From Phycisphaerae bacterium (GTDB lineage: Bacteria > Planctomycetota > Phycisphaerae > UBA1845 > Fen-1342): 64,000 bases of DNA. The notes below the pieces were generated by a model. That model was not told where the DNA came from. It saw nothing but the letters and a program-made list of their open reading frames with translations, and made no database searches. Both the position numbers and the translations under genes were made by a program. How positions within the stretch are numbered: the first letter of the stretch is position 1; each line of letters starts with the position of its first letter. The stretch is taken from positions 31,291 to 95,290 of the forward strand of contig JASFQK010000023.1 of NCBI GenBank assembly GCA_050115495.1, in the 5' to 3' direction. Below are positions 26,381 through 35,715 of the stretch, piece after piece.

Positions 26381-26431
26381 CCAGGGCGGCGGCCTGCGGG
26401 CCGGTGCCGCGAGTGCCGAGGGAGCCTGCCG

Positions 26432-29011
<2,580 letters not shown>

Positions 29012-29059
29012 GCCGGCCGGGGGGCCGAGTCACGGAGCACGGTGATCGGTCGCGATCGC

Positions 29060-29173
29060 CTACTTGGCGCAGCGTGAGCGGCAGCCAGTCCTGGCGGTCT
29101 TCTTCTTGGCGACCTTCTTCTTGGCCACCTTCTTCTTAGCCACCTTCTTCTTGGCGACTTTCTTCTTGGCCAT
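29060..29173 (-). CDS. 37-aa lysine-rich histone-like peptide MAKKK(VAKKK)4TARTGCRSRCAK, not in ORF track
   Basis: ATG at 29173, TAG at 29060; GGAGGA 7 nt upstream; 5 x 15-nt repeat with differences at synonymous positions. Confidence 0.85.
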   Translation of the reverse strand: MAKKKVAKKKVAKKKVAKKKVAKKKTARTGCRSRCAK

Positions 29174-29412
29174 GGCGCATTCCTCCAAGAGACTTTGCCC
29201 ACAAACGCTTGTGAGTCGCCGCAGTATCTAGCAAATGGCCACCGGCAAGTCAACGACCTTTCTGGCGCTGTTGCGTCACGAAATTGGGGTCGGGGTCGCG
29301 GGGTTGGTCGGGCGGCCGTTGGCCTACCCGGGGCGCGCGGGTCGGGGTAAGCTGTCGGGCGCACGAGTGCCTGCGGGCCGGGGACGCGCACTCGGGAAAG
29401 GAACGTGCGGGA

Positions 29413-30930
29413 ATGCCTACGAAAATCGCGATCTTCTGGCCTGGTGACTATCGCCCCAAACCCAACGAGCAGGCCCTGCCCAACGTGCAGCAGGCTACCG
29501 CCCAGCTCGAGGGCGCGCTGAAGAAGCTCGGTCGACCCAGCTACCGCATCGAGGGATTTCTCACTCGCCCGCACGAGGCCATCGAGAAGCTCGGGCCCGT
29601 TGAGGACCCGCTCATCGGCGTTTGCGTCCACTGGTTCTACGGACCGCACACTACCGACGGCGTCGTGGGCAAGGACAACCCGCTGCTGCTGGCCAGCAAC
29701 TTCTCCGGCACGTGGCCCGGGCTGGTGGGTTTGCTGAACACCGGGGCTTGCCTGGAAAGCGTCGGGCGCAGCTTCTCCCGAGCCTGGACGAGCGCCGACG
29801 ACTGGACCAGTGACGCGGCCTTCATGGCTCACCTTGATGAGTGGTGCACCACCGGACGCATCCGCTACCCCGAGGACGAATTGCACTACACCGCGGCGAT
29901 CACGCCCGAGGCCCGGCAAGTCGCGGAGCAGGTGGCCGGCGACATCCGCCGGCGGCGGGCGCTGGCCCTCATGCTCGGCGATACCTCGATGGGCATGATC
30001 AACGGCTACTTCGGCCACCGGCTGCTCAACCCGATCGGCTTCACCGAGCACAAGGTCGATCAGGCCTGGATCATCGACCGCGGCCGGCGGATCGAGGACA
30101 AGCGGCTCGACGCGGCCCTGGCCTTCGTCAAGGAGAAGGGCGTCACGTTCCACTGGGGCGAGGGCGACGCCGCCGACTTCGACGAGAAGGCGACCCGCGA
30201 GCAGTTGCGCGACTACCTGGTGGTGCTGGACCTGGTGCGCGAATTCCGGGCCGACTGCGTCGGCTGGCAGTACCAGTTGGGCCTGCTGCCGCTGCGGCCG
30301 CCGTCGGACTTCGCCGAGGGGCTGCTCAACAGCGCGTGTCGCCCGGAAGGGGACGGTGACACGATTGCCACGGCGACCGAGGGCGACCAGGGCAACCTGG
30401 TGCCGATGGAGCTGATGAAACGCGTGCTGAAGGCGCGGAAGCTGCACCAGGGCGTGATGTTCCACGACGTCCGCTGGTGCGGCGAGCACGACGGCCGCGA
30501 CGTGTGGGTGCTGCTCAACAGCGGCTCGTGCAGCGCGTACGCCTTCAACCACGACCCCGCTTCGCTGGCCGGCGTGCATTCCTATCGCCAGCCGGCGGGG
30601 TATTTCCCGGTACCGGGCGGGACGTTCACCGGCGAGAGCCTGCCCGGGCGGATCACCTGGTCGCGGGCGTACCTCAAGGGCGGCGAGTTGTGGATGGACG
30701 TCGGCCGCGGCGAAGTGGTCAAGCTGCCGCCGGCCAAGCGCGACGCCTGGTGGTCGGGCACGACGCGGGAGTGGCCGCTGATGACCGCTGACCTGGGCGT
30801 GCGGCTCGATACGATCATGGCCCACTACCTGAGCAACCACGTGGCCGTGGCCTACGGCGACATCTTCGGCGAGATGGTGGCCCTGAGTCAGGCGCTGGGC
30901 TTCAAGGTGCGCGTGCTCGGCACCGAGTAA
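29413..30930 (+). CDS. L-fucose-isomerase-like protein
   Basis: LLASNFSGTWPGLVGLLN, GDTSMGMING, GWQYQLGL, EGDQG, NHVAVAYG. Confidence 0.7.
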   Translation: MPTKIAIFWPGDYRPKPNEQALPNVQQATAQLEGALKKLGRPSYRIEGFLTRPHEAIEKLGPVEDPLIGVCVHWFYGPHTTDGVVGKDNPLLLASNFSGTWPGLVGLLNTGACLESVGRSFSRAWTSADDWTSDAAFMAHLDEWCTTGRIRYPEDELHYTAAITPEARQVAEQVAGDIRRRRALALMLGDTSMGMINGYFGHRLLNPIGFTEHKVDQAWIIDRGRRIEDKRLDAALAFVKEKGVTFHWGEGDAADFDEKATREQLRDYLVVLDLVREFRADCVGWQYQLGLLPLRPPSDFAEGLLNSACRPEGDGDTIATATEGDQGNLVPMELMKRVLKARKLHQGVMFHDVRWCGEHDGRDVWVLLNSGSCSAYAFNHDPASLAGVHSYRQPAGYFPVPGGTFTGESLPGRITWSRAYLKGGELWMDVGRGEVVKLPPAKRDAWWSGTTREWPLMTADLGVRLDTIMAHYLSNHVAVAYGDIFGEMVALSQALGFKVRVLGTE

Positions 30931-31165
30931 GCGGGCCGGCCGACAGAGCCGAAGCATTGGTGTTTGCTGCGTCCGCGGCCGCATGGTTCGCGGACGTAGC
31001 CGTCTGCTTGACCAGCCTCGGTTTGGGGGGAAGAATCCGTCGAAGCACGTTTGATGGCGGCCGGGGAAGGAAGCATCCCGCACGCCCCAGAAAAACTACC
31101 GCGCGCGACGGCCAGGCAGGGATGTGCCCCAGGCCGGACGTGCGCCAGCGCTGCAGGGCCGAGCC

Positions 31166-32053: not shown

Positions 32054-32196
32054 CGCGGCTCCCGCCGCCGATCATGTGTTGAATCCCGCGGGCGGCATCC
32101 ACTAAGATTGAGACTGGCGTATCAGGCGAGCCGCCGGCGGCCATGGGGCCGGCCGGCCGTATCTGGGTTCGTCTGTCGACACCGGAGGAGAAGAGG

Positions 32197-34296
32197 ATGA
32201 CGGCGAAGGGGTTGTGTATTGCGCTGCTGGCGGTGTGGGGGACGGGGTTGGCCGGCGCGCAGATCATCCGGGTGGACGACGATGCGCCGGCGGGTGGCGA
32301 CGGAAGCAGTTGGACGACGGCGTTTCGGTGCCTCCAGGATGCAATCGCCGTCGCCGGCACGGGGACGGAGATTCGCGTGGCCGGGGGGCGGTACTTCCCG
32401 GATCGCGACGAGGTCGGGGAGATCACGCCGGGTGATCGGTCGGCGTCGTTCATGCTGAGGGCGCACGTGGCGGTGCGGGGTGGCTATGCGGGTCTGGCCG
32501 ATCCGGAGCATCCGGACGTGCGGAACCTGTCGCTATACGAGTCGATCCTCAGCGGCGATCTCGCTGAGGATGACGAGCCCGGCTTTGTGAACGATGCGGA
32601 GAACAGCCGGCACGTGGTCTATGGCCCGGGCGTGTCGTCGACGGCGGTGCTGGACGGGGTGACCATCACGGGGGGCAACGCCGACGGCGAGGGGGATGCG
32701 TCCGAGGGCGGCGGAATGCGTCTGGACGGCGCGCAGCCCACGCTCGTGGATTGCCTGTTCACGGCCAATCGCTGCGCCCGCAATGGTGGCGGATTGGCCG
32801 CCGAGTCGAGCAGTCCGGCGATGACCCGCTGCCGTTTTGTGGGCAACGAGTCCGGCGAGGATGGCGGCGGGGCCTGGCTCTATTACTACAGCAGCCCGAC
32901 GATCACGGATTGCACGTTTGAGGACAACCGGGCGAATGACTACACCGGCGGCGGGCTGGTCTGCCACAACAATTGCCACCCGCGGATTGAGGGCTGCACG
33001 TTTCGGCGGAACTGGACGTGGGGGCACGGCAGCGCCATCTACTGTTACTGGAGCTACCCCACCATCATCGAGTGCACTATCGTCGGCAACTCGGGCGCAT
33101 CGGCCATCTCCTGCTGGAATCACAGTGATCCGACGATCACGCGGTGTGTTCTGGCTGGCAACGACAACGACGCCTACGGCGGGGCCCTGCTGTGCTCCAA
33201 CGGCCAGCCCACGCTGAGCGATTGCCTGATCACCGGCAACCGGTCCGCCGGCTATGGCGGCGGCGTGTACTGCTCCAGTTCGAGCGACGTGAACATCACG
33301 AGTTGCCGGATCGTCGGTAACCGATCGATCGATTTCCAGGCCGACGGGGCGGGGCTGGCCTCTGACCGCAGCTCGCTTACGGTGCACAACTCGGTGCTCT
33401 CCGGCAACGTCGCCGAGGAGTACGGTGGCGCGTTGTGGGCGCGGAGCGAAGCGACCCTGACCCTGAGCCTTTGCACACTGGCGGACAACAGCGCCGCCGC
33501 CGGGAGGACCCTGGGCTGCGACTCGTACGAGCAGAGTGAGCCGAGCACGATCCACTTCACGAGCTGCATCATCTGGAACGGCGGCGATGAGGCCTGGAAC
33601 AACGACGCTTCGACGATCAACGTGAACTACAGCGCCGTGACCGGCGGCTGGTCGGGCACGGGCAACACCGGCGACGATCCGCTCCTGGTCGACGGCGGCA
33701 GCGGCACGTGGACCGCGGTGGCCTTCGATGAAGCGACGTGCCAGATCACCTTCACCGACGCGGGTGCGGCCTGGACGCCCGGGGCGCTCGTCAACCAGCG
33801 GGTCAACCCGGATCTGTCGCAGGGGCTGCACTTCGTGGCCATTGCCAACACGGCGACTACGATCACGACGTGGGCCGATGCGGCCACGATCATCGGCGGC
33901 TGGCCGTCGGTGACGGTCGGCGACGCGTACGCGTTGTACGAGGATCGCCTTAGCGGCGGCTCGCCCTGCGTGGATGCGGGCGATCCGGCGTACGTCGCGG
34001 CCTCGGGTGAACTCGACCTCGACGGTGAGCTGCGTGTCTGGGACGGCGATGGCGACGACACCGCCCGCGTGGACATGGGCGCCGACGAGTACGGCTCGTT
34101 CCGGCTGGGCGATATGGCGTGCGACGGGCTGGTTAACAACTTCGACATCCGCCCGTTCGTGCTGGCGATCACTGATCCGGAGGCGTACGCGGAGGCGTAT
34201 CCGGACTGCGACTACATGTTGGGCGACCTCACCGGCGATGGCCTGGTGAACAACTTCGATATCAGTCCGTTCATCCGGCGGATCACGCAGCCGTAG
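32197..34296 (+). CDS. Secreted right-handed parallel beta-helix protein with C-terminal dockerin-like module
   Basis: Signal peptide; GDGSSWTTAF; repeated FxxN...GGG turns; SPCVDAG, DMGADEY; duplicated GDxxxDGxVNNFDI. Confidence 0.88.
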   Translation: MTAKGLCIALLAVWGTGLAGAQIIRVDDDAPAGGDGSSWTTAFRCLQDAIAVAGTGTEIRVAGGRYFPDRDEVGEITPGDRSASFMLRAHVAVRGGYAGLADPEHPDVRNLSLYESILSGDLAEDDEPGFVNDAENSRHVVYGPGVSSTAVLDGVTITGGNADGEGDASEGGGMRLDGAQPTLVDCLFTANRCARNGGGLAAESSSPAMTRCRFVGNESGEDGGGAWLYYYSSPTITDCTFEDNRANDYTGGGLVCHNNCHPRIEGCTFRRNWTWGHGSAIYCYWSYPTIIECTIVGNSGASAISCWNHSDPTITRCVLAGNDNDAYGGALLCSNGQPTLSDCLITGNRSAGYGGGVYCSSSSDVNITSCRIVGNRSIDFQADGAGLASDRSSLTVHNSVLSGNVAEEYGGALWARSEATLTLSLCTLADNSAAAGRTLGCDSYEQSEPSTIHFTSCIIWNGGDEAWNNDASTINVNYSAVTGGWSGTGNTGDDPLLVDGGSGTWTAVAFDEATCQITFTDAGAAWTPGALVNQRVNPDLSQGLHFVAIANTATTITTWADAATIIGGWPSVTVGDAYALYEDRLSGGSPCVDAGDPAYVAASGELDLDGELRVWDGDGDDTARVDMGADEYGSFRLGDMACDGLVNNFDIRPFVLAITDPEAYAEAYPDCDYMLGDLTGDGLVNNFDISPFIRRITQP

Positions 34297-34380: not shown

Positions 34381-35715
34381 ATGCACACGCAGAACCGGCT
34401 GCTTTGCGGCGTGGCTGCCCTGGTGTTGCTGGCGGCCGCCCCCGGTACGAACGCTACGTGGTCCATCGTCATCGCCGACACGGCGACGGAAGAGGTTGCC
34501 GTCGGCACCGTGACGTGCCTGAACGACTTCGACCTGCTGGCCCTGGTGCCTGTGGTGGTCGTCGGAAAGGGCGCCGCGGCGTGCCAGGCGTCGGGTGATT
34601 TTGACGGCGTGCGCCGGCCGATCCTCTTTGCCCATCTGGCCGCCGGCACGCCGCCGGCGGAGATCCTCGAACTGCTCGCCCAGGTGACCGGTCACCAGTC
34701 GCGGCAATACGGGATCGCCGACACGCAGGGTCGCACGGTGACCTTCACCGGCAGCGGTGCCTCGCAGTGGAAAGGCGGCCTGACCGGGCAGAGCGGCACG
34801 ATGGTCTACGCCGTGCAGGGCAACGTGCTGACCGGCGCTTGCGTTGTGGAGGACATAGAGGAAGCCCTGCTGACCACGCCGGGCGACCTGCCGGACAAGC
34901 TGATGGCGGCGATGCAGGCGGCCCGCGCCGCCGGCGGGGATGGGCGCTGCTCCTGCTCAGTCAGCCAGCCGACGCGGTGCGGTTGTCCGCCATCGTCGTT
35001 CACGAAGTCGGGGCACATCGGCGGGATGATCGTGGCCCGCCTGGGCGACATGGACGATCCGGTTTGCGACATCAACGGCTGCACCGATGGCGACTACTTC
35101 ATGCGGCTCAACGTCGCCCACCAGCCGGGCTACCGGCCCGACCCCGTGTTGCGCCTCCAGGAGAAGTTCGACGACTGGCGGGCTGACCAGGTCGGCCGGC
35201 CCGACGCGGTGCATTCGCAGGCGGCGATCGGCCCGCTGCCCATCCTCCCCGACGGCGCCTCGGTCACCACGCTGACCATCACGCTGCTGGACTGGCAGGA
35301 TCTGCCGATCACGGCCGACCCCATCAGCCTCACCGTTACGCACGCCGCCGACAGCGCCGGCTTGTCGACGATCGGCGATGTGACCGACCTGGGCGGCGGC
35401 ACGTACACCGTGACGCTGACCGCGGGAACGCACGCCGGCATCGACCGGTTCCTCGTGACGGCGGATGACGGCGTGCGGCCGGTGATTCTGCTGCCGCAGT
35501 CGGTGCTGCAGTACTTCGCCTTCGGTGACGTGAACTGCGACGGGCGGGTGAACAACTTCGATATCCGTTCATTCGTCCAGGCGATGACCGATCCGGAGGC
35601 ATACGCCGTGGATCACCCGGACTGCAACGTCATGCTTGGCGACTGCAATGGTGACGGCGCGGTCAACCAGTTGGATATCCACGGGTTCGTGCACCTTCTG
35701 CTGGCGGGATCGTAG
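34381..35715 (+). CDS. Secreted DUF1028-like (Ntn-hydrolase-like) protein with Ig-like and dockerin-like domains
   Basis: Signal peptide then TWSIVIAD; RQYGIAD, VQGNVLTG, GGDGRC; GGGTYTVTLTAG; GDVNCDGRVNNFDI. Confidence 0.85.
   Translation: MHTQNRLLCGVAALVLLAAAPGTNATWSIVIADTATEEVAVGTVTCLNDFDLLALVPVVVVGKGAAACQASGDFDGVRRPILFAHLAAGTPPAEILELLAQVTGHQSRQYGIADTQGRTVTFTGSGASQWKGGLTGQSGTMVYAVQGNVLTGACVVEDIEEALLTTPGDLPDKLMAAMQAARAAGGDGRCSCSVSQPTRCGCPPSSFTKSGHIGGMIVARLGDMDDPVCDINGCTDGDYFMRLNVAHQPGYRPDPVLRLQEKFDDWRADQVGRPDAVHSQAAIGPLPILPDGASVTTLTITLLDWQDLPITADPISLTVTHAADSAGLSTIGDVTDLGGGTYTVTLTAGTHAGIDRFLVTADDGVRPVILLPQSVLQYFAFGDVNCDGRVNNFDIRSFVQAMTDPEAYAVDHPDCNVMLGDCNGDGAVNQLDIHGFVHLLLAGS

Follow-up and report, generated by a model that had tools for sequence, protein, structure and literature searches.

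The window, meaning here the whole analysed stretch of 64,000 nucleotides from a Phycisphaerae bacterium, carries a 37-codon open reading frame on its minus strand, which is listed with its signals and neighbours in Table 1. Translation of 29060-29173 (minus strand) gave MAKKKVAKKKVAKKKVAKKKVAKKKTARTGCRSRCAK followed by a stop codon, a 37-aa peptide with 16 lysine, 3 arginine and 2 cysteine residues and neither aspartate nor glutamate, for which a pI of 11.4, a charge of about +18.5 at pH 7, a hydrophobic moment of 0.21 at 100 degrees and a GRAVY of -1.14 were computed. An earlier sequence-only reading of this DNA had described the frame as (VAKKK)5 with two C-terminal cysteines, preceded by a GGAGGA ribosome-binding site 7 nt before the ATG and by a weak TTGACT-N17-TAGATA pair. 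The strand, length and composition of the ORF, the pentamer array, the terminal cysteines and the ribosome-binding site were all found as described, but the array begins with MAKKK and only four VAKKK units follow. The promoter-like pair is likewise present (29253-29225), with a -10 box that agrees with the consensus at half of its positions.

Table 1. Features at and around the micro-gene (positions of the window).
Feature	Position	Strand	Remarks
37-codon ORF	29060..29173	-	MAKKK(VAKKK)4 and a 12-residue tail carrying two cysteines
Putative -35 box TTGACT	29248..29253	-	read from sequence; TTGAC-N17-19-TA recurs before closest relatives
Putative -10 box TAGATA	29225..29230	-	3/6 consensus positions; TG two bases upstream
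5' leader hairpin, GCGU loop	29198..29215	-	common to the long-leader class of micro-genes
Shine-Dalgarno (SD) GGAGGA	29181..29186	-	7 nt 5' of ATG
Intrinsic-terminator-like hairpin and T tract	28992..29040	-	from folding; overlaps 3' end of convergent phosphorylase gene
Glycogen/carbohydrate phosphorylase (PF00343), convergent neighbour	26432..29011	+	no functional link to micro-gene
L-fucose-isomerase-like protein, divergent neighbour	29413..30930	+	no functional link to micro-gene

The terminator-like hairpin, which had been overlooked before, spans 29001-29040 and is followed by TCTTTTT; its folding energy is -33.5 kcal/mol, with z = -5.6 against 300 base shuffles. A consensus scanner called neither a promoter nor a terminator at the window locus, and Rfam returned nothing exceeding chance over 28800-29500. 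The neighbours of the window copy are metabolic genes and are not conserved, the micro-ORF being absent from all 14 loci of neighbour homologues inspected for synteny with glgP or the isomerase gene. When one wetland metatranscriptome was compared, the share of words from the query sequence was 0.10; two short contigs matched the isomerase gene without differences within 26400-31000, and the depth over the lysine repeat came from lysine-repeat contigs of other organisms, the unique parts of the gene being unspanned among the pieces listed. By its anatomy, the window locus is a self-contained cassette with a predicted transcript. Further along the window, two secreted-looking proteins on the plus strand, one with a beta-helix (32143-34296) and one with DUF1028/invasin domains (34381-35715), end in a dockerin-like repeat.

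We regard the window ORF as almost certainly a real translated gene, based on its codon changes and its relatives. Among four AKKKV units of the window, synonymous and non-synonymous codon changes stand at 4:0, which is thin alone, and the fifth unit adds one V-to-T change. Pooling of the window array with three related arrays gave 37 synonymous against 3 non-synonymous changes, these arrays having been chosen beforehand as VAKKK arrays whose units share ancestry. A per-position table of 260 VAKKK units was set aside as circular. Among the fetched loci there are 187 distinct pure micro-ORFs of 13-132 aa (median 31), composed of 55% lysine, 22% alanine and 3.7% arginine with almost no acidic residues, and these form a large and mostly uncalled family of Lys/Ala micro-proteins starting with MAKK. 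An SD precedes 158 of the 187, some of which came from patterns without an SD requirement, compared with 8.1% of 20,000 random ATGs of the window's genome. The closest pairs in the family differ in length by whole codons. The closest relative of the window gene (genome G005) contains VAKKK seven times and ends in a similar two-cysteine tail. A TTGAC-N17-TA promoter, SD and hairpin terminator go with it as well, but its surroundings differ, with a lipoate ligase-like gene on one side and a glycosyltransferase gene on the other. A homologue search with a 52-aa relative returned no candidate, probably owing to low complexity. The claim of protein-level selection made in the sequence-only reading is supported by the conserved cassette architecture and the 187 distinct relatives.

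It is very improbable that the lysine frame is untranslated, either as a slipped AAG microsatellite or as the shadow of a hydrophobic mirror ORF on the plus strand (29064-29231) that would encode the real product. The mirror frame is indeed open in 183 of the 187 family ORFs, an openness that follows by construction, but a start with an SD was found for it at only 14 of 184 loci, far below the lysine frame. Copies that have diverged still keep their promoter, SD, stop and terminator, and the synonymous bias also speaks against this reading.

In the order to which the window's genome belongs, the pattern MAKK..KK..KK was matched in 83 of 111 genomes, and the reversed control gave zero matches. 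From the list of matches, 73 loci not linked to smc were chosen and examined, comprising 59 pure peptides (13-78 aa), 4 tailed HU proteins and 10 longer proteins. Of the 59 pure peptides, 56 have a TTGAC-type promoter match upstream, versus 1 of the 10 long ORFs, and many of the stand-alone pure peptides are preceded by TTGACA and a AGGAGGTGA site, near-consensus elements that suggest strong expression. Sixteen of the 59 follow mnmE and ten precede a gene for a ParA-like ATPase; six stand-alone loci sit after an MgtC-family gene. The leader of the window gene places it in a long-leader class marked by a hairpin with a GCGU loop, in which 82.5% of the cells are paired; covariation in this hairpin was not above that of shuffles (78 of 500 reached it), and RNAalifold on the leaders proposed a different, weak helix instead. 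The leaders of family f6 (L190-L212) have a conserved 5' hairpin with a GCGTCAC loop, which might serve in autoregulation by binding a protein, and several f6 genomes have two or three separate micro-genes.

Scanning all six frames of the window's genome revealed a 68-aa (VAKKK)n paralogue (G000:C49:21126-21332) lying 32 nt after the stop codon of smc, a gene identified by the SMC_N and hinge domains of its product. Before the SD of this paralogue lie a T-rich tract and a short hairpin that overlaps the final codons of smc, and ScpA and ScpB are encoded elsewhere in the genome, away from smc. For a survey of this arrangement the SMC C-terminus served as the criterion, so that the presence of the peptide had no influence on which loci were chosen. 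In the window's family, a K-rich micro-ORF was present 30-62 nt 3' of the smc stop in 57 of 59 loci, namely in 23/23 of a first set and in 34/36 further family loci (a set of 38 genomes, 2 of them without an smc match). Both loci without the peptide lie near contig ends, one having 39 nt left; in genome G253, where 100 nt are left after smc, the micro-ORF is absent, and here the exception is probably genuine. The 57 smc-linked peptides are 15-109 aa long, and an acidic residue occurs in none. In ten other families of the order, the pair was found in none of the 47 loci examined among 87 matching.

Across 21 loci the genes preceding smc represent 15 clusters, and across 23 loci those following the peptide represent 19, so the smc-peptide pair is kept amid changing surroundings; because the family genomes are kin, the pairing may represent one ancestral event under continued selection. 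No promoter was seen in the smc-peptide gap, and the peptide is therefore predicted to be co-transcribed with smc. From this distribution, the smc-linked copy is best regarded as the core of the family and the window copy as an accessory, separately regulated extra, since 8 of the 72 family genomes have the window-type promoter pattern, and in just 5 of these does it stand before such a peptide. Many smc upstream regions of the family (L347-L366) contain an ACTAYAT-type palindrome, which presumably resembles an NrdR box.

Similar lysine-rich segments are also carried by folded proteins. Forty-six longer proteins with a MAKK start were collected, and 41 were scanned after five pure or cut repeats had been dropped. 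Twenty-four of the 41 could be identified and 19 of these are DNA-associated, including HU (5), SWIB (5, counted here as chromatin-linked), topoisomerase VI-A (3), a DNA methylase (1), HARE-HTH (1) and histone folds (4, one of them a weak match with E 0.0009). Short MAKK starts occur on ClpX, L11, ExbD, KaiC-like proteins and three phasins as well, and K-rich tails on ribosomal L15, a tRNA endonuclease and many other non-DNA proteins. In the less selected set of 54 long phmmer proteins, 17 have a folded Pfam domain (3 DNA, 2 RNA, 12 neither), and VAKKK repeats inside long proteins thus show no DNA bias. Given the mixed partners in these other sets, the fusion evidence favours DNA for long N-terminal tails only.

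A MAKKK-tailed bacterial histone of genome G088 (L409:1297-1512, minus strand) is preceded by the promoter and leader layout of the window gene; it has a PDB match and is not recognized by Pfam. MAKK-tailed histones of the face-to-face type were found in 2 of 72 family genomes (L409, L419), and two queries found no face-to-face histone in the window's genome. The three-helix histone fold was not found in the 37-aa peptide, which is too short and repetitive for it, and only fused relatives match 9qt0/8cmp/8fvx. Long MAKKK-repeat N-terminal tails on histone folds were seen at L265, L293, L334 and L344, and the tailed histone folds come from Planctomycetota, Anaerohalosphaeraceae, Sedimentisphaerales and Halobacteriovoraceae records.

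With a stricter pentamer pattern, at least 120 loci were matched over the GTDB genomes, and 88 of the 120 listed are pure micro-ORFs. The bacterial matches listed include Phycisphaerae, Sedimentisphaerales, Pirellulales, Bdellovibrionales, Udaeobacter, Vicinamibacterales, Patescibacteria, Bacteroidia, Gammaproteobacteria and Leptonemataceae, and the archaeal ones listed with this pattern are Woese-, Pace- and Bathyarchaeota. Likeness across phyla is of the low-complexity kind and gives no proof of common descent. A loose phylum-wide pattern was matched in 77 of 121 genomes, yet only 7 of 30 inspected loci were pure, and no prevalence figure was drawn from it. The peptide class is broad and not special to the window; the suggestion of a planctomycete-specific basis for the condensed nucleoid holds only in part, since similar genes are found in many other phyla. 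Viral contigs yielded seven loci, two of them pure 21-aa MAKKK peptides with an SD (L402, L404); the peptides are not a viral feature.

None of 14 distinct pure peptides (10 + 4, the window peptide included) was found in a collection of 15 billion proteins, which does hold all four window neighbour proteins and both fused forms searched for. The description of the peptide as unannotated therefore stands for this collection, but the ESM Atlas holds it letter for letter, and its neighbours there are clusters of unnamed hypothetical proteins. A phmmer search against 1.84 billion representatives gave 54 matches, none below 100 aa, which is no proof that gene callers miss the peptides because this collection may filter low-complexity sequences. 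Digestion of the window peptide with trypsin would leave no fragment longer than 4 aa. Since such peptides are missing from the 15-billion collection and would be shredded by trypsin, they would escape annotation and routine proteomics alike.

Several known systems resemble the micro-proteins. Protamines and the tail-only H1 proteins of trypanosomatids are short DNA-condensing polycations, and some protamines, which are arginine-based and eukaryotic, use cysteine cross-links; in contrast, the window peptide has 16 lysines against 3 arginines, the family 55% lysine and 3.7% arginine, and cysteine is optional. ScvA of Coxiella is a small basic peptide of about 30 aa that is tied to one developmental form, and neither a repeat family nor an smc link is known for it. 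ScvA was speculated to condense chromatin (PMC13568565).

Likeness is also seen to chlamydial Hc2/HctB, BpH1 of Bordetella and the Hc2-like proteins of Burkholderia (PF07382, NF038052, NF038053), which also consist of lysine-rich pentamers with Ala, Val or Thr; even charge spacing, the absence of acidic residues and a variable repeat number are common to Hc2 and the micro-proteins. When 9 family members were scanned, 8 had HC2 as their best or sole Pfam match. The window peptide scored 13.2 bits against a PF07382 cut-off of 40, below membership, the 68-aa paralogue 22.6, and a 132-aa member 40.2 as the sole one reaching the cut-off; NF038052 and NF038053 did not match the window peptide. Hc2 has two basic residues per pentamer, and is 165-237 aa long with 36-aa elements (PMC2848022), whereas the micro-proteins have three lysines per pentamer and span 13-132 aa, the window peptide having 37. 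An smc linkage is not described in the Hc2 account consulted (PMC2848022), in contrast to the smc-linked micro-protein family. The micro-protein probably works like Hc2, whose pentamers condense DNA, and like Bordetella BpH1, which is dispensable (PMC2848022), yet it lies outside Hc2 membership.

A similar low-complexity basic segment is found in HupB/HupS, Ku, actinobacterial TopA, AlgP, PhaF, DdbA (PMC3643593) and the face-to-face histones, but in all of these it is a tail on a folded domain, and the window gene encodes the tail alone. It was reported that the lysine repeats of TopA, Ku and HupB stabilise DNA binding (PMC7398561), that positive tails are often present on bacterial face-to-face histones (PMC11390915), and that most bacterial singlet histones are without long tails (PMC10627809). 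In the accessible literature, most subscription journals aside, no description of free MAKKK micro-proteins or of an smc-peptide pair was found. New here are the fixed pairing with smc and the continuous range that joins the peptides to the tails of bacterial histones.

Our favoured reading, to which we give a fair though not overwhelming confidence, is that the peptide is a tail-only, histone-H1-like polycation that would neutralise and condense DNA. The DNA-condensing role is likely on indirect grounds, namely the smc linkage and the repeat shared with histone and HU tails. Strong translation would be expected from the SD, the T-rich leaders and the near-consensus promoters in relatives, and a cytoplasmic location from the lack of a visible signal peptide and the hydrophobic moment of 0.21. 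As a cytoplasmic, unstructured-looking Lys/Ala polycation, the peptide would bind the DNA phosphate backbone without sequence preference; its KKK blocks, spaced at five-residue intervals and giving about 0.5 positive charges per residue, would screen charge and bridge duplexes. DNA would then collapse much as it does with polyamines or H1 tails, the peptide acting as an H1 tail minus the folded domain. Co-transcription of the smc-linked paralogue with smc would tie the supply of polycation to condensin, and extra copies such as the window gene may top up the polycation under separate control. Weighing against this reading are the restriction of the smc pairing to one family, the mixed domains of the long VAKKK proteins, the short MAKK starts on unrelated proteins, the RNA binding of Hc2, the dispensability of BpH1 and the metabolic, unconserved neighbours of the window copy.

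The strongest competitor, clearly less probable and still to be taken seriously, is a general polyanion binder with RNA, ribosomes or polyphosphate granules as its main partner, which would act as a condensate modulator or translation dampener and meet DNA incidentally. Charge alone does not select DNA, Hc2 binds RNA (better than Hc1 does) and represses translation (PMC2848022), the H1-like AlgP is found at polyphosphate granules and PhaF at PHA granules (PMC11894788), and K-rich tails occur on phasins and the other non-DNA proteins named above. The near-invariant smc pairing (57/59) and the predominance of chromatin proteins among the N-terminal fusions count against it. The peptide might instead store lysine, serve lysine acetylases or methylases as a decoy substrate, or be a leader peptide that senses lysine. 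Such a role would suit a composition of 55% lysine and the fact that lysine repeats are acetylation targets (PMC7398561), but is improbable: no SET domain was found in the window's genome (92% complete), a terminator and a convergent gene lie downstream, so that a leader would have nothing to regulate, and a lysine-pathway gene is absent among the identified neighbours.

The sequence-only reading had further suggested that the CRSRC tail might permit disulfide or metal cross-linking; as a core feature this is not supported, most relatives having no cysteine. Cysteine is present in 21/57 smc-linked peptides (two or more in 9/57) and in 10/59 others, two or more cysteines occur in 19/187 family micro-ORFs, and in all 26 Cys-bearing sequences listed they are among the last residues. 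The cysteines recur as an optional element outside the family core; the two of the window copy may be an optional add-on that cross-links or binds metal. Their clustering near the C-terminus would also fit a geopeptide-like RiPP precursor, in which a radical SAM enzyme would modify a cysteine core that follows a lysine-rich leader, but there is very little to recommend this for the Cys-tailed copies: none of nine Cys-tailed peptides matched the NCBIfam geopeptide models (TIGR04229/TIGR04280 as the families concerned, E up to 10), no maturase is adjacent and no radical SAM gene occurs among the identified neighbours, the best TIGR04280 score in the genome is 61 bits against a cut-off of 400 and lies on other contigs, and most relatives have no cysteine. 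Least credible is a secreted or membrane-active antimicrobial, for which the peptide is short and strongly cationic enough, but against which speak the absence of a signal peptide and of a nearby transporter, the hydrophobic moment and GRAVY given above, and the housekeeping-like site after smc.

Beyond the favoured tail-only polycation, a wider and doubtful proposal is that free histone-tail peptides, invisible to annotation and to trypsin-based work, are an abundant main chromosome counter-ion in many bacteria and some archaea; in the planctomycete family of the window, together with SMC, they would form a coexpressed condensin-plus-linker-histone unit that replaces true histones and condenses the nucleoid, with cysteine-tailed copies locking DNA under stress. 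These peptides are a concrete candidate for the factor that condenses the planctomycete nucleoid; the tomography of Gemmata led to the view that unknown condensing proteins or cations may cause the condensation and may yet emerge from genomes (PMC3440768). If the smc-peptide pair is fixed, it would connect a condensin with an H1-like polycation in a way not described so far, and the occurrence of free tails alongside tailed bacterial histones is relevant to the origin of histone tails and linker histones.

Lysine-rich ends were also seen on other proteins of the window's genome (G000). A 407-aa protein (G000:C16:26815-28038, minus strand) has a long lysine-rich N-terminus, an acidic linker and a BCP/AhpC-like peroxiredoxin domain, and its relatives at L027, L052 and L175 have the tail and the acidic part without the peroxiredoxin. 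A DksA/TraR zinc-finger protein (G000:C29, L417:1596-2351) has a lysine-rich N-terminus, like Streptomyces DdbA. A PEP-utilising enzyme on G000:C2, probably pyruvate phosphate dikinase, carries a lysine-rich C-terminal tail that recurs in its relatives.
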